DNA of 63,741 nt, the filler included, from Hausera hauseri (lineage: Eukaryota): assembly GCA_046269625.1 (NCBI GenBank). It is 11 parts of 11 records of this genome, joined end to end, with 100 filler letters (N's around TTAATTAATTAA, not from the genome) between each part and the next. Parts side by side here need not be neighbours in the genome. Positions count along the whole stretch, not along the records: positions 1 to 8,768 come from JBJURY010538786.1; 10 more parts are not named here. One strand, given 5' to 3'. The stretch's first letter is position 1. Every line of letters begins with the position of its first letter. Below are positions 1,628 to 35,059 of the stretch, piece by piece. Both the position numbers and the translations under genes were made by a program. The notes under the pieces were generated by a model. That model saw only the letters and a list, made by a program, of their open reading frames with translations. It did no database searches and was not told the DNA's origin.

Positions 1628-4600
1628 GTGGCTGAGTTGAGAACCTGACAGAAAAGACTGAAAGAAAGTTCTGATGATAAACACAATTTGTCTAATAAGT
1701 TTTCGTGTGTACGAGGCGTTGTACTTATTTGTTATTTAATTCTCTGCTATACTTATTGAAAGTAACGAATTTGAGACGTATCTTCACGGTAGTGTCTGGC
1801 CGCAGGTAGGGTTTATCAAAAAATTTTAGTTTCAGTGTGATTGGATGATATTGCTGTGGAAGGTAATACAAAAGGAGGAGGCGAAACGACTGTAGATAGA
1901 TTATACTCGTTTCTGCGGTAGTTTCAGCAGGTGACGAATTGAAAGGTGATGTAGAAAAAGGCGAAGGTATAACAGTTGAGTGCGGATCAGAAATAGTAAT
2001 GAAAGTAGGGGTAGATGGAAATGTCGAAATGGAGGCAGGAATGAAATTGGTAGGTGGCAATGTAGGCACAGGGACGGTAGCAGCGGGATGATGTGTGGTG
2101 GACTAGGGGATCGAAGTCGAGATAAAGGTGGTTTTAGGTGTGAGGAATGAGGTTGATTCTTCCGTTGGTGAGTTATTGTTAACGTACAAAGCGGGTTTTA
2201 CATTAGTAATATACACTAAAACTTCTTTTCCGTCTTTCAGAATAACAGCATTATGTGAATGTAGTTGTATTAATTTATATGGTCTTAAGTACTGTGGCTA
2301 GAAACCGCAAGGTATCTGTTTTTTTAGCCATACAAACTTTGCTGAGTATAAGTCTTCGAGTATGTAAGATTTGTCATTGTGTAAGAGCCTGCAAAACAAA
2401 TCTTTTCTGATTGTAGCAAAATGATCCTGTGCTGCTTGTATCCTCTCGTCGATAGGAGTTTCCTCTAAAGCGGTTAATTCGAACAATGATTGTACAGGAG
2501 TTTCGAATAATGCTTCCGTTGGTGAACATCCTATGGAAGTGGACGGAAGGTTTCGCCAGCCAAGCAGGACGAATTGCAGAAGTGTTGTCCAATTGGTGTT
2601 TGACTGTGCAAGGATTTGAAGTAATGTTTTTAAGGTTCGGTGGAAACGTTCGATCAGGCCATTTGATTGGGGATGATAGGGGGTAGTATGAATATGAATT
2701 ATACCTAATCGGTTGACTAAAAATTTGAACAGATTTTATTCGAATTGAGATCCTTGATCCGAGATGATGTAACGACGGGATTCGAATCGACTAATCCACG
2801 TACGGATGAAAGTATAGGCTATTGTGTCAGTGTTTGTGCTCCGTAGTGGAATGGCTTCCGGCCAGAGTGAGGCACGGTCCATCATGGTCAGAATAAATTG
2901 GTGGCCGTTGTCTATTGGAAGAAGACCGACGATATCAATATGTACAGTTTCAAAACGTAATGTGCATGGAAAGTGGTATAATGGAGGTTTTAGATGTTTT
3001 ATTGTTTTATATTTCTGACAAGACACGCACTCTTTAACCCATGCTTGCATATCGGAGCGCATGGTTGGCCACAATACTTGTCGTTGAAGTAAGCGAAAAG
3101 TTGCATAGGCACCAGGATGATGTAACGAATGTATATTATGAAATGCCTGTTTGTGTAAAGATGGAGCAAGAATTATCTTAGATTGTCCTGGTTTGGAGGT
3201 ATCTAAGGCCACGCCGTCGATTATCTGGTGAGATTTGAACGATTTGAGAATATCCTGTGATGGCTGATTTTATTCGAGCTTTGACTGAGTAAAGATTGGC
3301 GAAAAATTAATTGAACCGACTGATTTGGATAGGAAATCGGCAAATAGATTGTCGACACCCTCGATATGTTTAATGTCAAAGTTGAATGTGGACGAATATG
3401 AAATTTGCCGTTCTTGTCGAGTTGAAGGGTGTTTCATTGCCATTATATTAATAAACGGCTTGTGATCAGTCTGTAAAACAAAATGGTGGACTGTAAGTAA
3501 ATAAGAAAAATGTCTTAGAGCAAGGACTATTGCCAAAAGTTCCCGATCGAAAGTTGAATATCTAGTTTCTGATGGCGTTAATTTTCGGTAAAAAAATCTA
3601 GAGTTTGATTTTCTCCTTTATACAACTGGTGTAATACAGCACCTAATGCGATGTTTGATGCATCTGTAGTTAAAATTACCTCACCGTCAGGTTTAGGAAA
3701 TGCCACTATTTCCACAGTCTTTAGTCCTTCGCGTAAACTGTCAAAATCATTAACCAGTTGTGGTGTCTACATGATTTTCTGATGTTTCTTTCCTCCGCTT
3801 AAGTGTGCAAAAGGTGCCGTCAGTTCTGAATAATACGGAATATATTTGTGGGTAAAATTCAGAATACCGAGAAAACTGCGCATTTCTGTTGTTGTCTTAG
3901 GAAGTTGGACATTTTTAAGAGACTCGACTAGATCAGGCTGAGATGAATGGCGGTTCAAAGAAATAATATGTCCGATGAAATTAACGCGCTTTTGAAAGAA
4001 GTTACATTTCGCCAAATTAATCTACAGGTTAAACTGGTTAAGTCGTTTGAAATGGATCGTAGGTGTTTTCGTGTTGTTTAATTGATGACGAGGCAACCAA
4101 GATATCGTCAATATATGGATGTGCAAAGGTGAAATCTAAAAGTATTGAATCGATATGTCGCTGAAAAATCTGCTCGGCATTCCGGAGACCGAAAAGCATA
4201 TGCACGTACTCATAAAGACCAAAAGGTGTGGTGACTGCAGTTTTCTCGATGTCTTCCGGTGAGACAGGAATTTGGTGGTAAGCTTTGGCTAAATCGATTG
4301 TCGAATAAACAGAAGTGGTATTACGCCGATGTAATATGTCTTTGATTAATGGTAATGGATATGCGTCCATTGTCGTTAAAGTACTAAGTTGGCGGTAATC
4401 GTCGCATGGTCGGAAAAATCTATCTTTTTTCGTACAACTTGGAGAGGCGAAGACCATGGTGATTTAGATCTGCGGACGATACCTGATTGTTCGAGTTCCA
4501 TAAATTCAGCTTCTATTGCCTGTCTGCGTCGCGGTGACAATGGACGGACTTTTTGTCTAATTGACCTTTGATGTCTTGTAATTATATGGTGGTAAATGCT

Positions 4601-6486
4601 GTTTACTGTGGTGAAATTTCTATCTTTCTAAAGTATATGAGGTCAAGAAGTATGGACGAATTGTTGTAAACTTGCGGGTAGTTGCTGGAATGTTGTAACT
4701 GGAGATGAACCGAGGTTGCTAGTATTACTTGGTATATGGTAACTGGTTGTTGAAGTGGAATCAAGTGGAGTTTGGAGTAGGGTGGTCGGATCCGGAACCG
4801 TGTTTGAGTAGGTGTTATTGTTTAATGATTTTACGGAAAATACCAGATTGTTGGTGTTGACATTGAGCTGTGATTGGCTGTCAACATTGTCCTTTAGAAG
4901 CTTACAATTTAAATCGTGATAACGACACTGTTGACTGTGGTGTTGTTGAGATGGTGTCTATACCTGTGTTACGGTCTACAGGTATATTCGCTTTCAGGCA
5001 GCGTCGGTTACAGTCGACTAGCAAATTATAGTGCGAAAGAAAATCTGAGCCAAGTATTGCCGTCTAAACGTTAGAAACTGTAAACGTCCAATGAAATGAA
5101 GAGGACAAGTTTGGTAGAGTGAAATATAATTTGCAAGTTCCGTCAATGTGGAGAGATTGACCAGAGACATTGTATAAATGTATTATTTTAGATGAAAAAT
5201 GCTGGACCGGAAAGGAAAGTGGTAGTAGTGAGATCGCTGCGCCAGTATCCATAAGAAAATCTATGGATCGGATGGTAAAATTACAGATAGCAGCTTTTAG
5301 TGTGAAAACTGCAAATGAAGTGTGTCGGCAAAAGGAATTGGATAAGTTGCCTTTGCCAGAACCTGCCGATAATACTGGCGGCGAAATCAGTTTTTTGGAT
5401 TGGTGAGTTAGAACGGTTATTGTTAGAGACTTTGGGGCGTCTATCAGTGCTGTAGTTTTTGTTAGATTTATAGCTACAGCCGGAAACACAATTTCGAGCA
5501 TTAGATCCGAATTTTGCATGATAGATGCAAACTATGTTATCCGAGTGTATATTCGACGAATAATATCTATACCCTAAACAGCATTTATTTGTTTTGTTGA
5601 TGAATCTGTTGTTGTAATAACATATGAATGACCGCGTTGGTAAAGGTGTTCGATTTCTGGAAGGAGAACGTGTTCGGTGAGGCGAGGGAGCATTCAGTCG
5701 GTGTAAAGAAAGGCCATTCAGTTTGTCGTTGATGGTGTTGATTGTGTGTTGGAGTGCCGCATTTTTGGCGCGTAATTGGTTCAATTGGTGTTCGATGGAT
5801 GTATGACGTTGATTGTCATCGGTCGTAATAGCGGCTGATATGATGGGTTGTGATTGGATTTGTAAGACTTTGTGTGCTTTATTTGTCAATTCAGCCAGTT
5901 TATCTAAGGCTGTAGAGTTTTCAACAACGATAAGTAAAGCTCTAATTTGAATTGGTAAGGCATTAAGGAAATATCGTCGAAGTAGATCTGGATTGTTTTT
6001 CTTGGTGACGCCTAGCGTACGTAAGTGAGCCAACAAGGGGCGTACGAAATCACTAGGTTTTTGTGTCCCCATTGCGTTTTTGTTAAAGAAAAGTTAAATT
6101 ATAGAGTCAAATGGTGGTTCTATCAGTTTTAACACAGCATCGAACAATTGGGTATAAGGGTCACAATGTTGAAAGATGTCCAGTAAGTTGTGGATTGAGG
6201 CCTTTATGGAATTTGGTAGAAGGTATAGTAGATAATGGGCTTTGGATAACGAGTCTTTAATACCGTTGGACTGTAAACAGAGTTGATGGAAGTGGAGCCA
6301 AGTTTTGCTGGACTTTTTATTATCTATAAAGTATTCAGTGCAATGTGGGGAAGTATTTGTAGAATTTTTGTGAGAAGAATTTGCATTGGATAAAGTAGGT
6401 AGATGGTTTGATTTCGGGCAGTAGAAAATGGATTTGGGTTTTGTGGTCACTTTATGAGTGATGTCACTAGTTGGTGGAGAAATCAT

Positions 6487-6704
6487 ACCGCTGCGGATAC
6501 TAGGATTGACGTGTATACATAGATGGTAATGTGAGGCCATGATGTGTTGGAGGTCAGTTAAATGAAACCGTTGTGAGTCAGGTAGAAATCAGTGAAGGCG
6601 GTGGTATTATAAATGAGAGTGTATAATTGTAATGTTTCCATACGTTGTGTGGCATGTACGGTTTGTATTAAGTTATTATTGATATAAAGGTAGAATAAAA
6701 ACGG
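6487..6704 (-). other. Ubiquitin-like domain upstream of gag, copy 1
   Basis: FLFYLYINNNLIQTVHATQRMETLQLYTLIYNTTAFTDFYLTHNGFI*...LCIHVNPSIRSG|MISPP; last part is in frame with gag ORF 6094..6540. Confidence 0.65.
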
Positions 6705-6911
6705 CGATGATAGACGGAAAGATGGGTAGAGTGGTATCTCAACGTGGTTATACGAAGTTAAGAGGGTTATTTTGCGATAATGTGCCTCGATTCCAGTTTG
6801 TCTCATTACAAATCCGTTAATTCCCATATATTGTTCGGTATTTGGTTTGATGGGTTTGGCAGGACAAGGTACGAGTGGTGAGTATTTAACAATGCCACAA
6901 GGTGGCTGGAC

Positions 6912-7560
6912 CATTTTATTAAATTCTATGTAGTCATTGTCGAGTTCATGAAATCCTACGAGTGTCAAATACTTCAGAACGTGAAAGCGTAGTTTACTAA
7001 TTTTGCTCAATGAAGCTAATTTAAGTTTCAATGTAAAATGAGCAACTTTGTCACCAGTAGCAAGATGTCTCGAAAAACGATGTCGTGGACAAAGAATAAA
7101 GTGAAACAACGGTTGAATAGAATAGACGAGATTTTTGAACTGAGGACTAAAGAAAAGAAGTGTTTTGCTGAAATGGCCTAGAATCGCAACGAAGGTAAAA
7201 GTGGTGTCGGAATATTTGCAAACTGTATCAGCAACGAACGCCTTCGCAGGATATAGATTGTGGTTTAAAAGTCTCAGACAACAAAAAACGTACGGAATCA
7301 TAAAAAGCAAAGAGAAAAGGTTATACTGCCAAGACTGACCGGTAACAAATGCAACCAAATTGAAGCAGCAAATAGAAACTGCAATAACCGAACTTTGGTC
7401 AATCTCTATTCCATTAATATCTGCGTAAATATTGATGGTATCCTTACTGAAAACGACCAATGTCATTAAATTATGATTCAAAAGGAGTATAAATAGGAAT
7501 ATTATGAAATAAATAACACCATGCTGTAAGTCTAATGCTTCAGGTATTTCCTTATGGACA
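6912..7560 (-). pseudogene. DPAGT1: UDP-GlcNAc:dolichyl-phosphate GlcNAc-1-P transferase fragment, intronless, internally deleted
   Basis: KEIPEA..GVIYFII then TINIYADINGIEIDQS, HNLYPAKAFVADT, ILGHFSKTLLFF, CPRHR, EFNKM match the DPAGT1 motifs NAINILAGINGLEAGQS / HNWYPSRVFVGDT / ILGHFSKT / CPRHR. Confidence 0.9.
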
Positions 7561-7924
7561 ACACGCAGAAAAGTTTGACCGGTCGGAAATTCTTATTTGA
7601 TACTTATCAGGGCCTGATGTGACATTATTTTTAATTTCTCGTCGATATGAATACTCAATCGTGAAAGTAGATCAACAATCCGATATTTAATTATGTCTGA
7701 AGGGAGTAACCTTGAAATGGTACATATACATGTTTTAAGAAAATAAATTTTTAGCTTCCTTTTGGAATTATGACATTATCCAATCCTATAATAGCGTTTT
7801 CCTGTTTCTTCAACAACATTGTACGGATAATTTGTTGGTTCAATAATTTTAACATGGTATCAAAGGCTTGTCGAATGAGATTAATGTAAATACTAAATGA
7901 GGCTGTGTTCGTGTCGTTTAATGT

Positions 7925-8768
7925 CTTGGATGGGTAATTCGATTTGTAAAGAAACTTAAAGTTTGTTGGATGATTGCAAGCCTCTACAACAGCTTTAGCG
8001 AGACATTCAGCACCTTTATCACCTTGAGCCCAATATGAAGCTAAAACAGCATCGTGCGGTCCGTTTTCTAGTGATATTCAATAAACTGCTTCGATTTCTT
8101 CGTATGATCGTATTTAAAATTGTTTAAAGCAACGACGACTGGGACTTCTTGTTTTTTGATATTTTCAATATGACGAACCATATTTGCACAGCTGGCTTCA
8201 ACAAGGCCCATATTCTTTTCTTCATTTCCGGGAGGAAAAGTTTGACCGGAAACAAAATCTGGGGCGCCACCAAGAAGTTTAAGAGCTCGAAGCGATACAA
8301 CCAAAACGGCAACATTTGGTACGAGACCAGACAATCTGCATTTAATAGTAAGAAACTTTTCTGCTCCAATATCGGCACCAAAGCCGGCTTCCGTTACAAC
8401 ATATCCATTCTCACCAACCAGTTTAAGAGCAATCATAGCGTTAGCAAATGATCCAGTATAAACAAATACCGTACCACCTTCCAAGGATTGCATCAGGTTG
8501 GGTTTAATAATTTCATTTCATCAGAATTATCATTGCAACGCAAACACTCAAATCCCTTGTTGTAATCGGATGCCCCAAATTACTAAATACCATTACAAGT
8601 CGCCCAATACGTTGTCGCCTGTCTTGTAAACTAGTGGACAGAGATAATATGACCATCAATTTACTAGCAACGCTCAAATCAAACTGACAATCTCTTTCAT
8701 GACCCCTTTCTGTTGCAGACTTGCCGATCATAATCTTTCGTAAAAATCTACCGTTAATATCAATAACT
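7925..8768 (-). pseudogene. MTHFD1: Formyltetrahydrofolate synthetase domain fragment (C1-THF synthase)
   Basis: FDLSVASKLM, KPNLMQSLEG, YVVTEAGFGADIGAEKF, PVVVALNNF, WAQGDKGA..LAKAV; stops and frameshifts. Confidence 0.9.
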
Positions 8769-8868: not shown

Positions 8869-9739
8869 GTTTCCGAACATGCATTCTGATTTTATCAAGC
8901 ATGCATTCACACAAACGCATCATACAAACCCTGGCAGGGTCCATCATACCAAAAACACGAAAATAACCAATAACGATCTTATTTACATGACATTCAAATA
9001 CCTTTAACACTCCAGAGATGATTAAATGTCTTTCGGTGTACGTATTATCTTCCTCTGTAAACGGTGGCACAGTTTCATCGACAATTTTCTCTGACGAATT
9101 AATTGAAATTTGTAGCCAACTCCATGGCCCTTGATGAAGCTCAGACCTGGGTAGCAGATCAAAGTCGTTTGTTTCCGATATATTTTTTCCTCTAACTTCG
9201 AACGTAAAAACATCAGTGGATTTCCATTTCTGTATTAAATTTAAGTTCTGAGTGTTCTTTAATTTAGGTATAATTTCGTTTAATTCACGACTATCTAAGA
9301 AACTGAGACTTCCAAATAAATCAAATGCATTTCGACGATTAAGTTTTGGAACGTTCGATAATCTTAACGGATCACCATTTTCAAAATCTGATATACTTTT
9401 TTCATATATTTTTCCATCATCAAATCGTATTTTAGTTCCAGAAATTCGCTGAGATATAGATACAGAAGTCATTTTTAATGTTTTTAATCCCAAGTAAAAC
9501 GTTTCAGAATTTTGCATTTGGTTTTGTAAATAAGACGATTGGGACATTTTTGATCGTCTATATTTCTGAGGCCTCTCCTGGCCTGAATTCTGCATCTTTT
9601 TCGGTGAGAAGCTAGATGCGTGGCCCTCAGATTTGCCCGCATCTATTGGCATCTCTTTTTTTATAAATTTCTGCATCTTTTGCATAAAAATCCGATTGTC
9701 TGAATTTGTCCTTACCAGGACTTTATGGACGATGAACAT
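8869..9739 (-). CDS. Hypothetical protein (about 290 aa, runs off the contig)
   Basis: Long uninterrupted ORF in AT-rich DNA; no motif recognised. Confidence 0.45.
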
Positions 9740-10079
9740 TTATAATTTTCAAAATTCATTATTGTTTTTCCAATATTTTATGGATTCCCCATTATTTAGC
9801 TGCTTAGCAGCCCACATTGCATGTTTTATTTTGCATGTTTCTTTGCATGCTCCATCCAACTTCACCAGCTGTCAAAATGCACAGACAAACCCGAACAAAT
9901 AAAATGGTATTCATGTCGGGTTTGTTTCAACATAAGACAACAAATATCAACTATTAGACAAGGTTCATCAAATGAAATAAAACATTGAATAACTAGGAAG
10001 TAAAATGTATCACTAGTGTTGTCATGTAAATGTTTCTCTGACAAAATTGATGTTCCATCAGTTCAGTGCAGCTGGGTCT

Positions 10080-10850
10080 TTCGATTGGTTCTGGTCTTAT
10101 GCACCAATTAATAAACAATCTTAGTTCATTCGGTATATCGTAAACCGGTTCATAACTAATAATCCTCTCTTTTTACAAGACGTGTTGCTTCGATCGATCC
10201 TTTATCCCCAATGGGAAAATTTCCAATCATTATTTCAATTAAGACCGCTCCATATGACCATTTCTCAGGTCAAAATTTAGATTTTTGACCGTTTAGTACT
10301 TCAGGAGCGGCATATCGTTTTCTACCTGGTGTAAGTATCGATTGTTCGGAAATATACTTTGATAATCCGAAATCAAATATTCCTACTTTGTATTCGGATT
10401 CCGACATAATATTACTGCTGGATATATCCATGTGAACAATCTTGTTTCGATGTAGAAAGTACAGACCACTTAACATCTGTTCCGAATATAAATGAATTTC
10501 ATTTTCACCCAGAGTTCCAGAACATTGAATTTGACATCTGGTTTTGCATCTCTTTTCCTGTTTGACATGTACTGGAACAGGGACATCTTCATTAGTGGCA
10601 TCCGGAGGAAAATTTGCTGTTCAGTTTCATAAAGACGCATGTACGGAACAAGGTATGGATGGCCACCAATTATTGCAAATACTGTTATTTCGGATATAAA
10701 GTCCAATTTAATATTTTCTTTGGATTTATTAATTTCTTTCAATACAAAATCATTCCTCCTGCCTTTAGTATTGCCTCGATAAACAACACCAAAACTTCCG
10801 CAACCTAAACAACGTTTGCGTTCTACATCTTCACACGTCCAAATCAATGC
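10080..10850 (-). pseudogene. Protein kinase (ePK fold), frameshifted
   Basis: LGCGSFGVVY, VLKEI, HMDISSSNI, DFGLSK, YAAPEVL spread over two frames. Confidence 0.9.
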
Positions 10851-11619
10851 ATAAAATATGTTTTTATGTCCAACCCGATCTGTAATTTCTTCATCACTCG
10901 ATCGATAATAGATAAGTTCAAGTGAACAGGGCCAGTTATGAACGAACAGAGAGTTTTTAGACCCTATATTCCTCAGGAATAAGTCGAACGATTTAATGAA
11001 ATGTTCTTAAATGCTCCTTGAACATTACTCCGTCCAAATCCTTATCAGTTATAACACGAATTTCTTGATTGACCATGTTTTGAACTTCTCTGTTAAAAGC
11101 CATTTCTTTCGAAGTCATTTTCCTCCAAAAAGGACTTCATAGGAGCATTTTCGCTTTTTCCTTCCGACTGTTTTTGTACCCTTTCGAAATCTATCTCGGT
11201 ATAAAAAACGGCCTAAGTCGTTCTTATCTTTGCTCGTGTAATTATAGCAGAAAATTTGTACAAGACCGTTTAACGGCTTTCAACTTTCGATGAATCATGA
11301 TTATTTTCGCTCTCACAGTCTTCCGAACCCCGCCAGGGATCATTCAATCATTATTTTGCACTCTGTTTTTATGCCACGCATACTCATCCAACGATTTAAC
11401 CCTTAAGAACCCAATTTTTAACGACTAGTACACACAGTGCAACCAACATGAACACACATACATTTATACACATACATACACATATATATACATATATACA
11501 TCTTATGCATCCCCTATACCTCTTCCGTTGGGGTTTGACCGGATTCCCCAACTAAACGGTCGAGTCCCAACATAAGCGATTACCAGAAATAGTTCATACT
11601 AGGTCATGAAACAATCCGG

Positions 11620-12800
11620 GAGACGGAGAAATACGGTAATGTTAGCCAAGCAGTAAACCTGCAACGAAATAATTGCGCGATTTTGAATAATAGCATGCTG
11701 GGTATTTGATGCGACTTTTATGACAAAGTTAGTGATTACGAACTGCCGATCTGATAACGATGTTCGGTTGATGAATGTCAGTCGAATTATATCGGCAACC
11801 ATAAGGTGGAGGACATGAAGATGATAGATGAAATTTAGAATACGACGGTTTCATAACAAGGATCACAGAGTCCAGTAGCAAATCGTCTTTACTTTTAAAA
11901 TACGTTATTTGCACTGGAAAATGTCTTGAAAGGTGTGCCTCTATATCTGATATTAACACAGAATTAGTGTCCACTATGCTTTTCTCATCAAAATGGTATG
12001 TGAGACCTTGCGAATGTGATGAAAATGAGAGTGAATCAATACTGTCCCGATTAACCAAAAACCCAGTTGGTGGGAAAATTCCAGTCGTTTGTAAACAATT
12101 ATGTGTCTTTAATTCCATTGATTGTTTGTATGTTAGCAAAGGAAAGACGACACAAGTGACTTGTCTTAGAGCATTATTGGAAGATAGAGGTGGAGTACAA
12201 TAAATATGATTGTTGTTGTCTTCATCTTTATCAGAATAATTAACGTGCTTACATTTTATTGACAATGTATTCAAAAGCTTGGTACTTTGAGAACTGGATA
12301 GAGATTTGAAATTATATTTGGAAGACGTTGATACTCCAGGATCTTCGTAAAATCCTTTGTTGGTTAGATGAGATTTTGGTTTGGTTCTATATTTTACTTT
12401 GATGTCACGGGGACACTTAATGACTTTAAACCAAATACTCTCCTTTGTTATATCTCAACTGCAACAAAATTCGCAACTGCAAGTCATGTTTCTGTAGGAT
12501 TTCCTCGCTGTCCTTCCCGGCACGACTGACGCATTTCACTAGGTAATATTCGTTTGTATTTTCATTTTCCAAACGGTATTTATCCAGAATTTCTCGCATA
12601 ACGTATTCTGCAGTGTCGTTGATTGAAAGCAAAAGCTATTTGTATGGCAACATGGGATTTAAACTTCCACCGTAAATTTTTAACATTCCGCCGGCGAGTA
12701 CGTCACCGCTCTTCGTAATTTGGTGCAATTTCTCTTCCAACTTTAAACGACGCTTTTAATCGCATCAAAAATTCGGATTCTGTCGATGTATTACATGACG
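11620..12800 (-). pseudogene. AFDN: Afadin/canoe fragment (second RA domain and start of the DIL region)
   Basis: KRRLKLEEKL..GGMLKIYGGSLNPMLPYK*LLLSINDTAEYVMREILDKY (RA2) and FPVQITY..DDLLLDSVI...FHLS...CRY...YCLANITVFL (pre-DIL region). Confidence 0.8.
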
Positions 12801-13340
12801 ATGTTGCTTGGAGATTTTGCCACCTTCTTCAAACCTTTGTGGCTTGATTTATTCAGACATTGGTTGCTATTTGAATTGATTCATTTACTAGATAATAGGC
12901 GATCCATCTTGAATTTTGATTGTCTGTTCATGCAATTATAAAACAATAGTTTTGTAAAGACCGTCTAACGGCAAAATCCGGCTGTGTCCAGTTAAATGGG
13001 CCAGGGGAGCTAAAATCTAGTTATTCGAGGTAGGTGAAAATTCGAGGATTGGAGAGACAGTAATTTTCATACCCAAAAATGAAAGTTCGCTGAATGAAGG
13101 GACAACAATTTAACCGGTTTCTTTCTTGAATATAAAGTTTTGTACTCGTACCAACATATTGGCGTTTGTGTATTTCATGTCTTATTTTGAATATTACTTA
13201 TTTAATTATTATCATAACCTACTNNNNNNNNNNNNNNNNNNNNNNNNNNNNNNNNNNNNNNNNNNNNTTAATTAATTAANNNNNNNNNNNNNNNNNNNNN
13301 NNNNNNNNNNNNNNNNNNNNNNNTGCGCAACGCTATTTAA

Positions 13341-13635
13341 TTGCCATTAACGCAAACGGTCAAAATCAAACCAGTGAAATATGGTCTATTGGTGAAAAAG
13401 TTCAGCGACGATGATTTGGATACAATGGAAGACACAATTGAAAAAGCTGACAGTGATTTAGCGTTGAGTAACGATATCCGAGATACATCGTCGATTTTTC
13501 TCAAAGGAAATATATCGAAAATTGTCAGTTCACATGACGGTAAAAAAACAACAACAGCAGCAGCAGCAGCAGCAGTTTTGCTACCGGAAGGAGCTAAAGG
13601 CCATCTAACATTGAAGTTACAAGAATACAAGGACA
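13341..13635 (+). pseudogene. Small Polinton-associated ORF, 3'-truncated (homolog of 53130-53566)
   Basis: Colinear with the contig-9 copy (LSNDIRDTS.IFLKGN..KIVSSH..PEGAKG.LTLKL); similarity stops at about 13635. Confidence 0.7.
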
Positions 13636-13799
13636 TTGTAGTTCCTTTGTTAAAAAATCCAAAACGAACAAGAGACACAATGCTTCTCAAACTAAGGTTT
13701 ATTATTTTAAATGCCAAAAAATCGATAAACTTTATATACAGATCATTAGCATAACATAATATAATTTTCAATTGATGTTTTGTTGTAGCAATTCAACAG

Positions 13800-14030
13800 A
13801 AAGGTTGTTAGCTTTTTGAAAACGTTAATGTGCGTTCACCACCCAACAGCTTGTGAACGTCGTCTGGATAAACCGTGACATCGAAGTCGTAATCGCTGTC
13901 AACAAGAGCTCGAATTAATTGTGCGCTGTTTAGGAAATGTACATTGTCATCTTTAGTTCCATGAATAAGCAGATATTTTTGTTAAGGAATATGGTGGCCA
14001 GTTGTGAGATATCAGTTTGAGACTATAGGC
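13800..14030 (-). pseudogene. Dipeptidyl peptidase IV (S9B) C-terminal catalytic fragment
   Basis: Not in the ORF track; minus strand reads KYLLIHGTKDDNVHFLNSAQLIRALVDSDYDFDVTVYPDDVH, containing the catalytic Asp and His motifs. Confidence 0.85.
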
Positions 14031-14625
14031 CAAATATTCGATGAATATTTTTATTTTGGCAGAACAACACGAAAACACTTGATCAAAACTTTTTGTTGAC
14101 GTATTAGTTAACCTGTCTTTGAACTTTGTTTCAAGTATCGATTGTTGTTATATTGTCAGAACATTGTGTACCGAATCATCCACCGCTAATTTAATCTAGC
14201 GTTGATTTTATGGTGTCCTCATATACAGTAATTAAAAGCATGACGCTGACACCTGTTTCTTGATCACTCGAATATTTACTTGATCGGATTTATTTGACCT
14301 TCGTCTTCCACTTATTAATGAATATTACCGATACCGTCATAGAATAATAATTGGTGTGTTGTATAGTCTGGATTGAGGGTATCCAGTATTTTATATGTTG
14401 TGTTCGGATACAAGAAAATCGTTCTGTTGTAAATTGAGTCATTGTGTCAAATCTCAAATAGGGATCTATAAATCTGGGTTGTTGTGGTCCTGATGAGATA
14501 TTCTGGCACGATGAGACAAAAGCAACAAAAGCGCGTCAATTCGTCAGCAATTACAAAACAAATAACAACAAATGATAAAACAAAACAGAGTATTTAAAAG
14601 TCCTTGTTGGGCACAACAGATATGC

Positions 14626-17600
14626 ACGACTTTTTTATTCGTTACCGTATACAGCTAGTGCTCAATCGATCGGATGATCGTTTGTGGCACAACTGCCTTT
14701 GATTCATCTCCTCCTTCTTTATAGATACGGCGATAATCACCGTGGTCGATTTCCGTCTGTCTCAGCTAGACTCCGTTTGCCCGCATTTTCGGTTCACAAT
14801 CAGTCAGAAGACTGTAGTTCTTTGGGCGTAGGAATATCCATTCCCGATACTGAACCCTGCCTTTACTTTCATCCTTGAAGCAGCCGATTTTGTTGGTGAT
14901 CGCACTACTGTACAACGGATAATCCGGTGGATAGTTGGACGTGTCTAGTAGTCCATCTACCATTATTTGCCGGAGAAGTTGGTCGCGATTGACGTTTTTC
15001 AGCTGAAGGAAAAAGCTGTCTGTGTCATCGGCAACGACACTGATCTCAGAGCCGTCGAACATTTGCCGGTAACGTGCCAAGTCGAGATATTGGAGCTCAT
15101 ACATTCGCAACTTGCTCAGGTCCAATACAACTTATCCGATGTAATTTGGCCGGTCCAGAACGACTTATTCCCGGTTTAACAGCGCAGCAACCAATCCATC
15201 GGCAATGTGCATTGACTGCCGAAACTGCGCCTTAATCGTGTACGTGACCAACCGCTTTTCGCCATTGCATAGGCGTACATTAAGCCGCTTTTTTAGATTC
15301 TCCACTGTTTTCTGTACAGGGAATTATTTTTCAGCTTGTAGTAATCCTTTCCAAACTTTGTGCAAGATGTGGCTCGTTTCTCGGAATCTCCATCTATGTA
15401 CGCCTTAAATATGGGAGCCTGACCGAATCGGATTGCACGATGCAGTTGTGTGACGCGTACACCCAACTGCATGTAGAACTGTAGCAGGCGCCAATGGACC
15501 ACGTAGTTCAGCTTCGGTTCATGCGTCATGACCAGTTTCTTCACTTTTGAGCCTGACGGACATTGGTTAAATGGTGCGACCGGTAAATCGTCCAAAACGT
15601 CATGCAGCTGATCTGGTACCACGAGATCGACCTTCATCAAGTATTCGACTGAGCCTGCCATGTCCGCTTGTGGTAGGTTAACCATTATGTCGTCTAGATC
15701 TTGCTGTAGATTACCCATTCTAATGAACCGTACTGCAAGGGTTGAGAAAGCGCCCAGACATAGAGGTTATTAATATCAATATATAGCAGTGATGTGGTAT
15801 CAGTAGCAGTGACCTGATGCTTGTTGGCAAAAGGCATGCCACCACGAATACCCACCATCAAACAGCCGGTACATTTCCGGGTCTTGCAGCAGCTTAATGT
15901 CTCGATCCAGTGATATTATAGCTGACGCCAAACTCATTCCCGGTATGGAATAAAAGATGAGTGGCTCCAGCCTATCTTCAGTCAACATTTTCGCCCGAAA
16001 CGCCTCGAACACATCGGCCAATAAGTACACGTCCAGTTTGAGATACTGAAGCAAGTACTCCAACATGTTTCTACAGCCGAGTTCTGTCCAATATTCTTGT
16101 CCGCTCAGATATTCTTCTTTGGTGATGCCTGTCCATCGTGGCGGTAATTCCTCTGCTGTCCGGAGTAGCTCTTATGATGTTGAAAAGTCATATGGAAATA
16201 TGCCTTTGTTGCATACAATATGTGTGGGGAACTGCAATGAGGTTATAGGCACATCCGGCAAGGCATTTACCAGCTTCGCCAATAATTCATTGAGAAATTG
16301 CAATGAATTAAGGAAGCGTACCAGGAACCGGTTTATGCATGCTGACAGGGACAGGTACTTCTCCAATGTTGTTGGTATTATGGACAGTTCCCAGTGTGGA
16401 AATCCGTTGATGGCCCATTTCAGTATATGGTGACAAACATAACCTCGGAAATTATGAAAGATCACCGGTAGGAATGGTCGCACACGCCTCGCTAAATTGC
16501 ATGAATTACACGCTGCTCCCAAGTACAGACCGGTAAAATGGTCGTGATCCGGTACGAGTCGTTCCTGTGCATCAATCGGTATCATTTTGTGGCACAGATA
16601 ATATACGTCAGGCGTTCGTCTTCATCTGTCCAAATAAGGGGTTTTGTGTTGTTATTGCGATACCACGGTGCGATTTCCGATTCAACTGTTGTTTTCAAAT
16701 GATACAGTAAATCACGCACACAGTCCCATCCGTGAAACATGTAATACTGTGGTTGACCTGCAGCTTTTATTGGAACAACCAACATTCCGACGGCGATTGG
16801 AACATGTTTTTGATCGAATACGTCGTGCCGTGGTAGGATTGCCTCAATATCAGCATATACCACATATGCTGGACTGACCGTTTTCGACCCGTCACTAAAT
16901 TGCAGCTCCTTCTTGACTGGCATGATATACATTGTTGTTCCTGATGCAATTTGTCTGCACAGAGTCACATGTTTCTCCCATGTTGTTTCCGACCTAAATC
17001 CTTTCAAACATACAGGACATCATTTACAACGTATACGCTTTTCGATGAACTGATGGTGATCCATGTTCAACAGTCTGTCCACATTTGTCACGGCCACGTA
17101 AATTAAATTTTTCTGCCTGCTCCAATAATAACAAATTTACTGTGTGTCCATTCGGGTTCCCACTTTGATAGATTATATCCACATGTGGATTCTTATAAAT
17201 TTCTTCGTCTGCCGGTATTTCAACTGTTGTATTGTACGGGAACACGTTGATTGACAATGTCGGATTATGCCGTTCAACTGTTGGCATGGTTTTTAGTTTC
17301 ATTAGCATCCAGTTTTCGTCGAATTGCAATTTGGAAAAAAGACTGCCTACACTGACTTGTACGATATGCACTATGTCTGTATACTGTGTCATATTTTAAT
17401 ACCACCAGAACACTGTAAATAAAACAGTAATCATCTTCCGTGTTTTTTACATTTACTACCGCATAAGAGTGCTTTAGGGCTTCAGGTGACGGTTTGAATG
17501 AACCTCCGGACAGGTAAATTATGCCACTCAAATCTTTTATCATAAAACCGCTTTTTTCACCCAACTTTTCATCTATGTGGGCAACGAAATCTTTGGAATA

Positions 17601-18376
17601 TGGAACTCCTCTATGTGGCAGGTACCATTGTTTCCTGTCACCCTGCAGATTCTCAAATTCTGCAAGTGCATAATATTGCACTTTGCAGTTCTGCTGTTTG
17701 AATTTCTCCACTTTGGTTTCTAACCGGTTGCGCACACGATCGGGTACATGCTTCAGCTGAGTTGTTGATTTCGCCGACATGTTTACTTTTATGTTCACGT
17801 ACGATCTGTTTAGGTCGTACTTAACACTAATGGGTGGCTCCTGCTGCTGCTGCTGCTGCTGCTGATGCTCTGTATTGCTGCTTTGCAGGTATTCATCAAG
17901 ACTTGTTGATGCTTGACGTTTCCTGCTTCTTGAGGGAATACGGCTTTTTTCTGCCTCCATTAATATTTTCTTTTTGGACCTCCGAAACTGGTTCAAGTGG
18001 TCCTTGTGCTCATTATAAAATTGTTCACAGTTGATTTCATCAACTATAAAACAATCGGGACAAATACAGGCCCGTTTACCGTGCACCATTGTGGCGCCAT
18101 AGTATTGATGCATTGCACTATGGCAACCATCAACGTTGTGCACTGTACTTGTACAGTACCGTGGGTACATGGGGCAATGCACTAGCATCATATTCTTCGA
18201 CCGTGTAAACGGTCCGAGATGGTGCTTATACATTTCATAAAAATCAGGGTACCGACACTGGGCCGAAATATTACACGTCGGACAGAGATATGTGTCCCTG
18301 TCCACTTTGTAATATTTCGCCATCTATCAATGGCACTGTTCTGTCTCCTCATGTATGAGAGAGAGACGCAATACAT
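14626..18376 (-). pseudogene. polB: Protein-primed DNA polymerase B (Polinton/Maverick type) with EndoVII-like insert
   Basis: VVNVKNTEDDYCF, YADIEA, DHDHFTG..GAACNSCN, FHNFRGY, YLKLDV.LLADVFE, KLKNNSLY, DTDS, FKDE; heavily disrupted and missing the last motif. Confidence 0.93.
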
Positions 18377-18561
18377 GGGATACTGATTACATTTCTAAAT
18401 TTAAACAAATTAACATTTAAAATAGATTAAAATTATAAATAGAATAAATTAAAATGTATAAACTTGTAAAATCAAACATTACGCATAACCCCAATTACCT
18501 TACTCTGTTATAAACGTTTCTTCCCCATGCTTCTACTACTACTATTACTACTACCAATCAA

Positions 18562-18831
18562 ATGGAACAGTACATTGGAAGTGAGATTCAGAAATTGACC
18601 GATGACATTTTGACCGGACATGTGTTTGATGTACAGTTTTTATGTGAGCTCACAGAAACCAGAATAATGAGCAGGCGAGAGCATATTGAATTGATAGTCA
18701 GATCGCTCTTCGTAAAACGTATCAAGGATGAAACGAGACGAAAACGACAACGACGTATTAATTTCCTCATTGGACTTGTATTTTCTGCTTCGCTTTGTAT
18801 TTTAATGAAAAAGTTGATTGACCGTATTTAA
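18562..18831 (+). CDS. Small protein with basic patch and C-terminal TM helix, divergent from polB
   Basis: RRKRQRR then INFLIGLVFSASLCILM; homolog at 48570-48826. Confidence 0.7.
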   Translation: MEQYIGSEIQKLTDDILTGHVFDVQFLCELTETRIMSRREHIELIVRSLFVKRIKDETRRKRQRRINFLIGLVFSASLCILMKKLIDRI

Positions 18832-18890
18832 TCAGAAATTTTGCTATGTTTGTTTTTGTGAATCAATATAATTTATCTGTTACATTTCAG

Positions 18891-18898
18891 TATAAATA
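18891..18898 (+). promoter_or_regulatory. TATA box upstream of the next element ORF (ATG at 18930)
   Basis: TTTCAGTATAAATAC conserved in the second copy (48459-48466, minus strand). Confidence 0.5.
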
Positions 18899-20315
18899 CA
18901 TGCGCTTCTTTACGGTACGACATTACGACATGTCCCATTTAACAGAACTCATTCATTTATATCACTTGTTCGACGGTCTACGGAGTCNNNNNNNNNNNNN
19001 NNNNNNNNNNNNNNNNNNNNNNNNNNNNNNNTTAATTAATTAANNNNNNNNNNNNNNNNNNNNNNNNNNNNNNNNNNNNNNNNNNNNATGGAAAAATCAG
19101 TAGAAGGCACCCAATGTCTTGTCCACACTAAGGCCGACTGACACATACACTTTTTTGTTTAGCACCTGTTTTTATCCGTCTGTTTTAATCGTTATATTTT
19201 TCACTTTGCCACGGGGGGCGTGATGTACCCTTTGACCCATTTGGTTGGGCAAGGCCGGGCCTCCGTTGCCGCCGCGTCGGGTCCATAGGCAGGCCCCCGG
19301 TCTTCCGCCTCGAAAGAGTTTCATGCATGTGATAGATCTTACTAAATCCACCATTATACTGCAAATGTGATGTTAAAAATTGTTTCTAATAACTTTTTAT
19401 TACAAAATTACGAAAGGATATATTTCAATCCAACATGAAAAATTTTGGTGTGGTACTTGATTCTTTGTTGCTCTAATGGAATGTATGCTGCACTATTTAA
19501 TCACTCTACTAGAAGAGATAAAACTCAGTAAACGCTTTATCATTCAAGGTATTCAAGAAAATCTCGACCTTCTGGTATATCTTTATAAACGTTGTCAATA
19601 ATAGGACGTTGTCAATAAACTTTGTCATTATAAAGGCTCAAACATGAAGGAACTGTTATGGTTGCCTTTATAAGAAATTATGAAAATCTGTTACCTTGAT
19701 GAAAACACATCTCACTCGCCGACTGGATTAAATTCGTTAAAATGTATTCGGTCAATTTTATCTCGCACATTTAGTTTCAAAGGGATACGCGATTTCGGAT
19801 TCAGTGTGCATCGATATGAAAGAAGGTCTTAGAAAAGTATCTACTCTTGTTTATACTCACTCGCTTCAAGATAATGAAGAATGCTTTTCACTATACGATG
19901 GCTTAGAAAATTGCTTGCCACAAGGAGAAACTAAATATAAATTCGTGGCATGAAATTGTTTTGAAAAAATTGCCCAGTTAAACTGTATCTTTTATCCGGG
20001 AAATCTGATACAGCACTGAGGAATAATTTACAAGGTAATTGGGATGTAGCCGTTGTGGAAGATGTTCCAATAAACAGCCTAAACATACTCGCATCGATAA
20101 TGGACAATTCCGTTCACGATAACGTATACCAAACATTTTGCCATGCCAATTACTGGTTTAAGTTTTTTTTAATAGTTTGTGTATGGATATTGTGCAATTC
20201 TTAACAAATATTGGAAGTTTAAAAGTCGATGTAAGTTTTCAAATTTTAACATTGAGAATCCAAAATATAGATTGGTTCTTTTTTACTTTTATGGCCACGA
20301 AAATTACAACTTCGA

Positions 20316-20860
20316 TTGTTACGTTACATTTTTTTGGGAACAAGCGGAAATGAATCTCCTTGTTATCTATCACAAGTAAATATATTTCATTTCCTGCTGG
20401 ACAATGGAGAGGGCTCGAATTTTGACGATTCATATGTAAGTCAAGTAGCAAAGTGCACTAGAAAGATCGATGCTGTTCTTCTGTCATACTTTGATGTTCG
20501 CCATTTAAAAGCTTCAACTTACTTTATTCGAAAGTATGGCCTCAGTAGTCAAATGCATGCCACTCTTTCAGTTTCCAGAACGAGTCATGTGACCATGCAC
20601 GACGCGTACATGTCGAAACTGTCAGACAATGAATTTGGTAAATGTAGATTGAATGATATCGACACTTCATGTTATTCGATTATACTATTGAAATGCAAAC
20701 ACTCTCGAAACCTCAATGGCAGAGTTCAGGATGTTTCTGTGACCCTGTTTCTGGACAGCCATATCCTCGGTGGAACGATTTGGAAGATTATAAAAGACGA
20801 CACTAAAGTTGCTTATGTCATCGATCACAATCTGAGAGTAGAAATACACAAATATTGGTG
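20316..20860 (+). pseudogene. CPSF2: CPSF100 N-terminal metallo-beta-lactamase-fold fragment
   Basis: ESPCYLSQV..FHFLLD, IDAVLLSY.D..HL, HILGGTIWKIIKD, YVIDHN. Confidence 0.9.
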
Positions 20861-21092
20861 TTAGGAAAATTTCTACCCTTCGTATATTCTCATAAAGGTA
20901 ATGTTCCTTTATTATCAAATTGAATTAATATCCAGTAATAATAATGCCCTTTAAGAAATTATTGATAGTGAAACATACAACACTCGATTGCAATCCTCAA
21001 CCGTTTTAATATCTAAGTATATAGAACCATATCCTCATCAATTTTATACCGATGTAAGTTTTACTGAGATTATCAAGTTATACAGTAATGTG

Positions 21093-21670
21093 GATTTGAC
21101 ACAACCCTGAGTTCACAACTTGCGACTTTTATATGGCTTATGCCGATTATAACGATTTGATGAAAATTGCCGAAGATTTAATATCCGGTTTGGTGCATTA
21201 TCTTTTCGGATCTTATAAGACAAAATATCGACTGAACGACAAAGAAGTTGAAGTGGATTTCACTCTACCTTTTAGAAAGGTTGATATGATGAGGGAGTTA
21301 GAAGATAAGCTGGGTGCTGAAGTTTCGAATCCTTTACAAATGCATACTGAAAGGTCTCGAGAAATTTTAGATAAGCTGTGTTGAAAAAAATGTTGTTTAC
21401 ACCACCCCACGAACGACAGCGCTGTTACTGGATAAATCAGTTAGTGAATTTACTGAATTCCCATGTATAAGTCCAACCTAAATTTTCAATCGCCCGGAGA
21501 TTATGTCGCCTCTTACAAAACATCATCGCAGCATTCCTGATTTAACTGAGAGATTTGAACTGTTCCTACTCACAAAAGAAATCTGCAATGCTTATGCAGA
21601 ATTGAATGATACGTTTGTGCAACGTCAACAATTTGAACAGCAAGCGAAGTACAAGGCAGCCGCTGATGAT
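21093..21670 (+). pseudogene. KARS1: Lysyl-tRNA synthetase catalytic-domain fragment
   Basis: [58 protein letters not shown]; ends at AAADD. Confidence 0.93.
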
Positions 21671-22479
21671 TTCCGTCATATAGTGTTGTTCGACCAGTTG
21701 AATAGAACATGTCCACAACTGCAGCATTTTCTAGATTATCTGTGTTCTTGTCATCAAATCAATCAAGTATCTCATTCTCCAATACTAAAGCCGTTTCTGT
21801 GCTTTACATTTGGTGAAAATCACCAAGGTCAGCGATACTCCAGAATGCAAATACTGGATTGGGTGCCTCATCCCATTCACTCTTTCACACCATGTTACCA
21901 TTGAATTGTGAAGATGCTATGTTTGAACTGATACTTAGTTATCTTATTGTCGACAATACCTGAAAAGCACAGAAATTCTGTTGTTATTCATGATTGTATA
22001 TTTGAAGCATTTTTTTTTCGATTGCGACCCAATTTCTTCCTCGTAGCTGAAACACAAGACACAGAACTTCTCGATTTCGCTAGAATGGCCTCTGAAGAAT
22101 GTCACGGAGTATGTGAAAGTACGTGGCAATCTGACTATAATGGAATTAATCCATCCCTTAACTATATGGAAAAGACACTAGACACAATCGTTATGTAAAT
22201 TAACAAATTATCTCATGACTTTCTCGATAACTACTTACACTTACGTGAAATGAGAGACATTTGCCGACGAAATTCCGACTCAGTCGGCACTCTAACAATT
22301 CGGACAATTCGCACATCATCTAGTGTTCATGGGAAAATTACTTCATTGAGCAATGAACCAGAAATTGCCGTAATCGTTGAGACCGATCCTCTCCAAACGC
22401 ATTATGCGCACAAGTCTTCACTAGCCCGTAAAATGCATTTGCTGCGTAGCAAACGTGGAGTGACCGATGCAGAAACAAT

Positions 22480-25400
22480 GCATGCGGGGAACTCGGCTAC
22501 CCCGAAATTTGTGACCCGCCGTGGCGAGGTTGAAGCCCCGGCCGCTCACTCTATACCATTGGGTCGGACAGCACTCGTCGCTGCTGCCCCACAACATGCC
22601 CCCGGTGACACGACCTTTATATTTCCTTTTCTTTTTTCTAAACAACTGATACATTTGCACACATACAGTAACACATTTAAACACAGCTGCCATCCATAAA
22701 ATCATTTCTACTTCTCTTCACTCCCCCGACTTCTATCTCACACAATGGATCTGTAGTACCTTTCACTGGACCCTTCCAACCTTCTACAACTTGTGTCTGC
22801 CTTCACATTCACTTCCGCATCCGTGGTGGTATGTATTCATCTCCCACTATTGATACCACGGACAAACCCACCAAACCTCCGATCTCTATCACTTACTTAC
22901 CCCAACAAAGTGCTTCAAACACCTCGACACAGCACACACTTCCCACTCATTCACCCCTCACAGAATACTTCCTCGACAGCCAAAATTCTACACAAACGTG
23001 GTTAAAACTTCATCAATTCCGACTCCAATCACAAAACGTCGTCGACCCCTTATCCAAAGCCAACAGCCTGTATTTTCATTTACCTGCTTCCATCAAAACA
23101 AAAATGATAAACATCATCGATATCCTTCATCACACCGATGCATACGTTCAACTTTATAATGCCGTCCTTAAGCTCACTGAGCCGTCAATGGACTCCATCA
23201 TTCAAAGATTCTTCAATGACAATACCATGGGCCTTCAGAAGCCCTTTGAATTCTTGCGCACATCTTTTTCTTACCTCAATACCATTGGCGTAACATCTGA
23301 GCATAGTCCAGAACTTATTCGTCGCTACTTTTTAAATGCATTGCACCTTCAAATAAGAGCTTTGCTAACTGTGGCCGAAGACTCCACGGCACTGGAAAAG
23401 CTAGCCGAACTGGCGGACAAAGCTTACGATGTCCTGCACTCACACACGACACCAAGTGTCTCTGCGGCAGTAACAACAAACCAACAACAACAAAATGCAA
23501 TGCTGCAGCAACAAATTGCGCAATGTCGCACAGAAAATGAAATGTTACAAAAAACAGTGAACAATATAAACGAGAAATTAAATGAGTTGGCTCTACGTCG
23601 ACGCGGTTTTTCTAGGGCTGCTTCCCGTAATGTATTTATTCAACGTCAAAGAAAGTCGCCTTCGCCCGCCCGGTGGTATATTTTCTACTACCATAACAAA
23701 TTTGGTAATAATGCTCAGAAATACTGCATAGGTTGTAAATTTTACAACCAACATCGTTTGCATCTATCACTCAAAATTTGGAACAAAAACACAAAAATGC
23801 CTACCTGGCTGTAATTACAACACGCACAATAAAATCAACACTATTAAACCCACACAAAATAGCAGGCCAAACTCACCAGCTACAAAAAACTGATTTCGCC
23901 GCTAGGACACACGGCAAGTTCTAGTAAAGGCAACAACCAAAAAAACGACAGCCGACACATTTCTTTTGCTGCATTCATGGTGGAAGCGCCAGTCGTCACT
24001 CCAACAAAGCAAAACATTAACTTTCTCATAAACACCGGCGCTGCAATCTCTTTACTACCACCAACACAGCACATTCAAAACGATATTACTTCAAAAAAGC
24101 AACTGTTCACTGCGTCCGGTGAACCTTTACAAATCTTTGGTGTTACTAAATTAACTTTCACACTTCCAAATTTCCAAAACACATTCACATTAAAATTTAC
24201 AGTAGCCAATGTACGTACACCTATACTGGGTTCAGACTTTCTTTCCCACTACAATTTACTTATAGACTGCAAACGATGTTCCTTAAAGAGCGGAAATAAT
24301 TTCAATCAAATTAGCAGCATTTCGGTGACCACCCGGGCGATTGCTTCCAGAAAGTCAATATTGAAGAAAACGATTTCCGATTTAAATTATTTTTATAATC
24401 ATTCATTATACAGAAATTTTTACTACGGTGAAAAATACGATATTGCCAACTGCGTGGCACCTATTACTGATACTACAGCTGCCAAAACCATCTTCAACAC
24501 GAACATCCTGCACCAAATGCCACCTTGTCTACAACTCATACCTCAACTGCATCCAGTCACGATGCATCGACACAGCCTGATAACTTTTCATCGTTGCCTT
24601 CTGACTTACACCAGTATATCTCATTTTCCCGCACGCGTCTGTTGCAAAAGGACAAATCATTCGTACCACATTAATCCATCTTTCATCAAATAGTAACAGC
24701 ACATCAAAGACCAATACGCAAAAGGTCTGCCCTCTATCGCCTTGCCGCAGACAGGCAGTGGAGGCTGAGTTTCTCGAACTGGAAAGATAAGGAATAATCA
24801 GAAGATCCAAATCCCCGTGGTCTTCACCACTGCATGTGGTTCCAAAAAAGATGGCATATTTCGCCCATGTGGTGATTACCACCAACTCAACATTATAACA
24901 ACAATGGATGCCTATCCTCTACCCTTAATCAACGATATCCTTCATAGGTTCCATGCTTCGACCATCTTTTCCTGCACTGATTTACTTAAAGCATACCACA
25001 TAATTCTAGTGGCCGCAGCAGACATTCCGAAAATGGCTGTCATTACACCTGTCGGCCTTTTCGAATACCTTCTTATGCCTTTTGGACTCCGTAGCGCCTC
25101 CCAGACCTTCCAAAGGCATATTGATACAGTCCTATAAGGTTTAGACTTTGCTTATCCTATATCAATGATATCTTAATTGCATCATCTTTCCTGAAACAAC
25201 ACTCCAAACACTTACGTTTGATCTTCCAGCACTTGCACCAAAACTATTTGCAAATTAATTTCTTAAAATGCTCTTTTTTCAACATAAGGTCAACTTCCTA
25301 GGACATGTTATTAGCTCCTCCGGACATATACTTCAGCCAGAGCGCATCACACAGCTCAAAAACATACAGCTACCACATTCATCAATAGAGATGCGCTCTT

Positions 25401-34395: not shown

Positions 34396-34396
34396 A

Positions 34397-35030: not shown

Positions 35031-35059
35031 GATAGTTGGTTATATGAGACATCCTTGGG

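Follow-up and report, generated by a model that had tools for sequence, protein, structure and literature searches.

The window analysed here, a stretch of 63,741 nucleotides from Hausera hauseri (assembly GCA_046269625.1), is made up of 11 contigs separated by linkers N44-TTAATTAATTAA-N44 and contains decayed Gypsy and Maverick-type pieces together with host-gene fragments. Our subject is a Ty3/Gypsy retrotransposon family in which a ubiquitin-like domain (UBL) precedes Gag, and the pieces of host genes that lie upstream of it. Four decayed copies of this family were found, each on its own contig, with a mutual likeness of 64-71%. A preliminary description had stated that in all four the 5' long terminal repeat (LTR) is replaced by co-oriented, truncated host-gene fragments, and had read this as a systematic capture of host mRNAs at the 5' leader. 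The observation was partly confirmed and is largely real, its wording being too strong; the reading itself is partly supported.

The gene order of the family is gag (of the DUF7041 type), protease (PR), reverse transcriptase (RT), RNase H and integrase, and the UBL ahead of gag ends in xxGG. RT and RNase H were recognised in all four copies, and integrase pieces in all but copy 2, whose contig stops within RNase H. Copy 1 lies on the minus strand, its internal region (2103-6850) comprising a decayed arm and leader, the UBL (~6695-6500), gag, PR, RT, RNase H and integrase; its polypurine tract (PPT) is found at 1619-1631 and is followed by TGT at 1616. The other copies lie on the plus strand. 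Copy 2 (22610-26088) includes the UBL, whose GG ends at 22830, gag, PR, RT and RNase H up to the contig end. In the case of copy 3 (37819-42813), a decayed arm, the UBL (37965-38177) and gag-pol are present and the contig stops right after the pol C-terminus, and in the case of copy 4 (43504-47903) the UBL (43543-43722) and gag-pol are followed by a contig stop in the tail past integrase, before the PPT. A PPT followed by TG is seen in copy 1 (1631-1616) and at 19208-19222; the contigs of copies 2-4 stop before their own PPT; a G-run at 47832 was rejected as the PPT of copy 4 (134/1000 shuffles). A UBL profile of 21 relatives ranked the four copies top among all six frames of the window, with independent E-values of 4e-6 (copy 3), 0.009 (copy 4), 0.06 (copy 1) and 0.3 (copy 2), and the scores improved once the two closest relatives joined the profile.

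Six host-gene pieces could be named upstream of these copies: FTHFS (C1-THF synthase) and DPAGT1 in copy 1, CPSF2 and KARS in copy 2, RABGAP1 in copy 3 and an adenylation domain (A-domain) of a nonribosomal peptide synthetase (NRPS) in copy 4. These assignments, already made in the preliminary description, were borne out by Pfam (FTHFS, Glycos_transf_4, CPSF2, tRNA-synt_2, RabGAP-TBC), by solved structures (DPAGT1, CPSF2, KARS, A-domain) and by a full-length homologue (RABGAP1). The filler, as we call the sequence in this position, differs from copy to copy. All six pieces lie on the element strand, as had been stated, and all are 3'-truncated and bear stops, frameshifts or deletions, with no intron-sized insert in the alignments to homologues. 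Counted by copy, co-orientation is 4/4, for which chance gives 1 in 16.

In copy 1, the FTHFS piece (7924-8767, minus strand) runs through three frames, corresponding to positions 166-249, 250-390 and 399-445 of 556 in PF01268, and is cut on its 5' side by the contig end. The DPAGT1 piece (6912-7625, minus strand), supported by profile and solved structure, ends at 6912; it joins profile positions 31-77 in frame to 177-362 of 412, with ~100 codons lost. To describe abundance, we used a depth summed over the contigs of a run, X1, matched to the window, which is not equal to copy number; the run may be the source sample of the window, and the comparison covers the copy 1 and copy 2 regions. This depth is 75-230 over the FTHFS piece and 520-1110 over the DPAGT1 piece, where up to 51 contigs have a differing letter at one site. 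From the genes and the X1 depth we infer an animal host whose genome is rich in repeats. In copy 3, the RABGAP1 piece (35540-37600, plus strand) includes DUF3694, TBC and the start of the coiled coil. Its match covers residues 307-856 of the 1112-residue homologue (36003-37570), the PTB part upstream being recognised by eye only, and the contig begins 12 nt ahead of it. An ARAGORN call of tRNA-Thr inside this piece (35653-35745) is probably spurious. The A-domain piece of copy 4 (42914-43372, plus strand; phmmer E 6e-20 to LgrA) is cut by the contig start and abuts the arm of the element.

Two of the pieces are, as had been reported, read into the element within one open reading frame (ORF). 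By the limits found here, 6558-7592 on the minus strand runs from DPAGT1 through the leader into the first half of the UBL, and 42914-43540 on the plus strand from the A-domain into copy 4 element sequence. The junction earlier placed at 37725 in copy 3 had to be given up, as RABGAP1 ends at ~37570-37600 and the arm starts at ~37819.

Copy 2 is the only copy in which both sides of the host pieces are visible, with element sequence on both flanks. Its order runs from a pol end through the PPT and the left arm to the filler, and on through the right arm to UBL-gag. The contig opens with the end of an upstream family member (19088-19220, plus strand; depth ~10000), comprising its pol C-terminus, T-rich 3' UTR and PPT. 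These first 133 bases align with the 3' end of copy 1 over 140 nt (0/1000 shuffles), their likeness to the ends of copies 3 and 4 not being significant (263/1000 and 134/1000); because of the alignment to copy 1, an assignment of 19088-19300 as a minus-strand leader was rejected. The left arm follows, a TG-starting, GC-rich LTR head from 19221 to ~19315. On the other side, the right arm (22480-22596) has CA as its last letters, and the C-run behind it (22597-22609) is complementary to the PPT; the homology shared by the family starts with this arm. Lying between an LTR start and the conserved sequence ahead of UBL-gag, the host pieces of copy 2 occupy the place of the LTR in an arrangement that is either tandem or LTR-sharing.

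Consequently, to speak of a replaced 5' LTR goes too far, as copy 2 retains an LTR start (PPT and TG-starting arm, 19221-19315), and the place of capture is misnamed as the 5' leader, as the pieces sit between PPT plus LTR start and the conserved arm. Of the statement that no 5' LTR is recognisable in any copy, it holds that window self-comparison gave no direct LTR pair around one element, the contigs ending early. It does not extend to copy 2, where an LTR start does lie further upstream, nor can LTR absence further upstream be shown for copies 1, 3 and 4, since their contigs end within the host piece, 0.46-2.3 kb upstream.

The filler of copy 2 begins with a stretch (19316-20270) containing a GT..AG piece and a high-depth spike, which gave no Pfam match in six frames and no PDB match in the one frame searched. 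It is followed by the N-terminal CPSF2 piece (20290-20861; residues 12-187 of 782; depth 77-99), the internal KARS piece (21090-21673), which ends at residue 525 of 597, and an 800-nt piece (21679-22478), mostly open in the KARS frame, for which the searches gave no identity and which is absent from a sister copy. All of these lie on the plus strand. The description of all fragments as intronless stands, as far as the alignments to homologues go, for the six named pieces but not for the filler of copy 2, where a 45-nt GT..AG piece (19372-19416) is kept in the window and skipped by an X1 contig (joint 19371-19417). In total, short GT..AG pieces of 32-45 nt were noticed at 19372-19416, 20231-20270 and 21054-21085, two of them sharing their first 13 letters, which suggests a host with very short introns. 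The spike is a short AT-rich segment (20195-20317, summed depth ~4000) just ahead of the CPSF2 start, with no match elsewhere in the window, in the related loci or in Rfam.

Depth marks both boundaries of this filler. Across 19088-19315 it is 9800-14800, and it drops from 14844 in the left arm to 82 one bin further on; close to the end of the arm (19288/19297), 36 and 51 contigs have loose ends. Over most of the 3.2 kb of filler it is 18-110, save for one spike and two adjoining rises, with a depth of 4-13 in long single contigs. At the right arm it steps up from ~45-50 to 780-990 (arm and leader), i.e. ~20-fold. Single sites in the filler show 4-9 X1 contigs with other letters, so that the filler is multicopy and diverged. 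The copy 2 junction is crossed by an X1 contig of 471 nt, which spans 22210-22680 with 14 differences. Moreover, a 964-nt X1 contig represents a sister copy that is 87% alike over KARS and jumps from 21678 to 22479, the ends of this joint matching the end of KARS homology (21673) and the arm start (~22480). As the sister copy joins KARS straight to the arm, pieces were added or lost at the right arm. A second joint leads from 22380 to 22487, so that two of the ten joints listed end at the arm start. Altogether, the depth step, the KARS-arm joint, the bridging contig and five proteins from elsewhere, described below, support systematic capture at a 5' boundary, but this does not apply to the whole clade.

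The two arms are related by inversion. PPT plus left arm form an imperfect inverted repeat of the right arm, most clearly that of copy 4 (43373-43491, plus strand; 0/1000 dinucleotide shuffles, z 6.0), which ends in CA at 43491 and is followed by a C-run (43492-43503). The arm of copy 3 matches that of copy 4 at 6/1000. In direct orientation the arms never gave a significant match. The TG after the PPT mirrors the CA at the arm end in copy 2 (22596), in copy 4 and in L009, one of the related loci. Among distant relatives, the 3' arm of L006 matches both its own leader and the leader of L009 in inverted orientation (0/1000 each). The right arm may be U5, or descended from the leader. A 25-nt TG..CA hairpin was rejected as a mini-LTR or U5, as its folding is not stronger than that of shuffled sequence (z -0.3 and +0.3), and the chance figure for the TG..CA pattern was discarded as being no test, the pattern having been built from its own three matches.

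Regarding priming, the site used for comparison was TGGTGTCAGAAG, found in 11 of the 21 related loci, which we take to be a primer site of the tRNA-Asp type. In the window it occurs 6 times against 5.1 expected, so that no canonical site stands out from chance; TGG-like starts at 43406 and 22510 are unverified candidates. The only complement seen that could serve self-priming is PPT plus left arm, at the 3' end. Rfam gave no match in 19088-23000.

To place the family, we compared it to relatives with the same UBL-Gag arrangement. The 21 related loci came from one scan, and none were found in the viral-contig and genome-contig collections. In 29 of 33 related proteins with a gag motif (162 proteins examined), xxGG lies at most 90 residues upstream of it; the Pfam ubiquitin model was matched by 8 of 44 scanned related proteins, and the UBL of L002, L004 and L019 seems close to true ubiquitin. 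The UBL-Gag clade is separate from five UBL-less DUF7041 Gags (100/100). Loci with TGGTGTCAGAAG are ordinary LTR elements: in 9 of them the span from PPT to primer site measures 340-685 nt, with a GC content of 17-29%, and circular assemblies were obtained for 4. The ordinary-LTR elements L002, L004, L005, L012, L014, L017 and L019 form one subclade (RT 100/100, Gag 100/99) without the window copies. Since the clade also has ordinary-LTR elements, the acquisition of host pieces is not a feature common to the UBL-Gag elements as a whole. In the RT tree, which has open forks, the window copies and L006 were not resolved as one clade (2 changes).

Of 9 loci whose primer site precedes gag, 8 keep the UBL-Gag frame open through this site and have a Met inside the LTR; in L002, L004, L005, L007, L012, L013, L014 and L016 this frame extends from the LTR Met over 178-344 codons through the primer site to GG. 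The site is absent from the 1.3 and 2.9 kb that lie upstream in L006 and L009, respectively. In L009, a STAG piece (supported by Pfam, with no PDB match) and 932 open codons stand ahead of GG, and in L006 a CLN6 piece follows the 3' arm in the same orientation. More generally, host pieces ahead of UBL-Gag were found in 4 of 44 proteins from other assemblies (DIS3-like plus CNOT1, H2A, STAG, 5'-nucleotidase), and a fifth predicted protein from other assemblies has an HSP90 piece in this place; the five fall in four subclades of the UBL-Gag clade. Two further proteins, P0029 and P0154, which we take to be ARP8-like and LRRC47-like, were not counted as evidence. As a separate observation, L001:1-172, upstream of UBL-gag, is the reverse complement of L010:4591-4762, a 3' LTR start, at 99%.

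We think it probable that the host pieces at the LTR position are host mRNAs copied by the RT of the element during synthesis and transfer of the strong-stop strand. We infer the RNA origin from the lack of intron-sized inserts. In retroviral chemistry, the sequence upstream of U5 is made as the strong-stop strand is made and transferred. At this stage, the RT would copy the right arm and then switch onto a co-packaged mRNA at an internal point, from which 3' truncation and sense orientation of the pieces would follow. It would then return to the 3' end of the element, so that the newest piece adjoins the right arm and older ones stack behind it; the KARS joint and the stacked pieces fit this order. 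Chimeras that transpose again would multiply their filler, which fits its multicopy state. Should the arms be complementary and not directly repeated, homology-guided transfer would be poor and capture frequent. With gag of this clade being read from a start codon that lies within the LTR, and with a UBL-GG preceding it, filler in frame could supply the start, and host deubiquitinases would release Gag at the GG. A more far-reaching proposal, which we regard as doubtful, is a lineage without repeated R or tRNA primer that has complementary RNA ends, primes itself by a PPT duplex, uses packaged host mRNA as first-strand bridge, takes start codons from the filler and releases Gag at GG. If so, new insertions would routinely gain a new host-derived LTR middle, and the shuffling of host genes would be a normal replication step and not an accident.

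Several results weigh against capture during terminal-repeat synthesis. In the window, no element was seen that has both of its ends together with a target-site duplication. Only copy 1 shows parts of both of its sides, and these differ: 3' of its PPT (1616 to ~900) lies low-depth sequence with no repeat of FTHFS/DPAGT1, no clear left arm and, from the searches made, no identity, while one reverse-transcription event should give two identical LTRs. In copy 1, depth also peaks next to the arm, the opposite of what is expected if the newest piece adjoins the arm, and its junction has no bridging contig among the X1 matches listed. The depth of the left arm (~15000) by far exceeds that of the right arm (~900), so these may belong to different subfamilies. 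The inverted match to the right arm of copy 2 is weak (35/1000), albeit the longest inverted pair of that contig, and the match of the left arm to the arms of copies 1 and 3 is not significant. Ordinary-LTR controls are not clean either: two of seven also reached 0/500 for an inverted match and a third 16/500, and in L005 a complement to PPT plus LTR start sits in the leader behind the primer site. An ungapped anti-PPT in the leader is not general among ordinary relatives (1/7 with p under 0.05). The filler retains its 45-nt GT..AG piece and has two more pieces starting with GTAAGT, no parental gene of the pieces was obtained for intron comparison, and decay obscures any common frame of filler, arm and UBL in copies 2-4. 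Finally, a host piece within a predicted protein is bound to be co-oriented, and the gene caller may have joined such pieces to gag.

Some of these points would be accommodated by an origin at the DNA level, in which the element inserted in or beside host genes or stacks of pseudogenes, or picked up flanking sequence by 3' read-through, followed by segmental duplication or transposition. The retained GT..AG piece, the differing sides of copy 1 and the unseen parents speak for it, as does the second contig of the window (8869-13223, minus strand), where RA-domain and kinase pieces are co-oriented without any Gypsy gene. Yet it leaves unexplained why six of six pieces are in sense and free of intron-sized inserts, why several unrelated genes are stacked within 3 kb and why the joint of the sister copy matches both the KARS end and the arm start; moreover, the 3' half of DPAGT1 was looked for behind copy 1 and is absent. 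We consider this origin unlikely.

A true replacement seems more doubtful still. Here, the right arm would be the ancestral 5' leader, acting as an RNA-circularisation signal, and U5 and primer site would have been overwritten by host cDNA, giving dead-end products that enter the genome by recombination and not by integrase. This would suit the canonical primer site being no more frequent than chance in the window and the complement in the L005 leader, but dead ends should not multiply together with their filler, in copy 2, copy 4 and L009 a CA occurs where it mirrors the TG behind the PPT, and L006 and L009 share the layout with open frames. Chimeric assembly of repeats and genes is very improbable: the contigs are short, come from a repeat-rich genome and end at repeats, and X1 may itself be the source sample, but the contig bridging the copy 2 junction has 14 differences and so represents another copy, the host pieces have stops, frameshifts and deletions unlike live genes, and the same layout occurs in other assemblies.

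If host mRNAs are indeed captured during terminal-repeat synthesis, the process is best read as a variant of LTR-mediated retroposition that is unusual in its place of capture. The latter has been described in metazoans as RT switching onto mRNA, in a paper that cites maize Bs1 and the chimeras of yeast Ty (Tan et al. 2016, PMC5131818). The retrocopies resemble the present pieces in being partial and often 3'-truncated, in forming multi-gene chimeras and in undergoing further rounds of transposition, but they take the place of some of the internal ORFs, between two LTRs, and show microsimilarity at their joints (PMC5131818). In the window, by contrast, the layout of gag-pol is complete and the pieces lie outside it, at the LTR position, with a fixed boundary and differing by copy. 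Host-derived sequence inside an LTR is reported for the TRIMs (miniature retrotransposons with terminal repeats) Cassandra, Helenus and Ajax, which are non-autonomous and carry a fixed 5S rRNA or tRNA sequence with a Pol III promoter (Kojima 2024, PMC10886601). The window copies, unlike these, have changing protein-coding pieces, gag-pol and no Rfam match in 19088-23000. Ordinary UBL-Gag (DUF7041) relatives share the UBL-GG-Gag-Pol order, the pol C-terminus and the PPT with the window copies and differ by their AT-rich LTR of 340-685 nt and canonical primer site. Tf1/Sushi-type elements, of the chromovirus clade, and Tcn1 are described as self-priming by a complementary part of their own RNA without tRNA primer site (PMC6317226, PMC3601003); their self-primer lies in the 5' LTR, here the only complement seen is in PPT plus left arm at the 3' end. 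Canonical LTRs have short inverted ends only (PMC3601003).

Our literature search, which did not extend to most subscription journals or to supplements and repeat databases, turned up no paper that describes such a layout, and among the titles and abstract openings searched there was no match for a ubiquitin-like module before Gag with an LTR-started frame. In PMC3597677, on genes incorporated into transposons, the word ubiquitin is absent. The LTR-mediated retrocopies so far known arose as rare accidents within the element. If a family took up host coding pieces in its terminal repeats at a fixed joint, stacking and multiplying them, it would contribute strongly to pseudogenes and exon shuffling; LTR finders requiring two identical repeats would miss it, gene counts would be inflated by it, and binning could be misled.

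The remaining contigs provided some minor observations. In the second contig, the RA-domain piece is presumably afadin-like, and a 22-nt match to the arm start lies between the RA-domain and kinase pieces (11549-11530); as only these 22 nt matched (76/1000), 11530-11549 was not counted as an arm. A second retroelement family, whose gag has two zinc knuckles, is found at 1-895 and 59323-59394, both on the minus strand; its summed depth of 140000-410000 drops off at ~895, and between it and the PPT of copy 1 lie 660 nt of low depth and a primer-site-like stretch (955-944). The window also has a fifth Gypsy pol, which is unrelated (26189-30334, minus strand) and has an extra ORF of 296 codons behind integrase. 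The contig at 59495-63741 is a CT-rich simple repeat with many N gaps. Decayed Maverick/Polinton-type pieces occupy 13324-18987, 30435-35427, 48004-54830 and 55645-56421. The second of these shows DNA_pol_B_2 and Endonuclease_7 matches, an inverted duplication (33150-35027) and a tandem array (35063-35427), and two other contigs share a Maverick-type region of 4.4 kb that is 75% alike between them, with an Endonuclease_7 match and also a RING finger.

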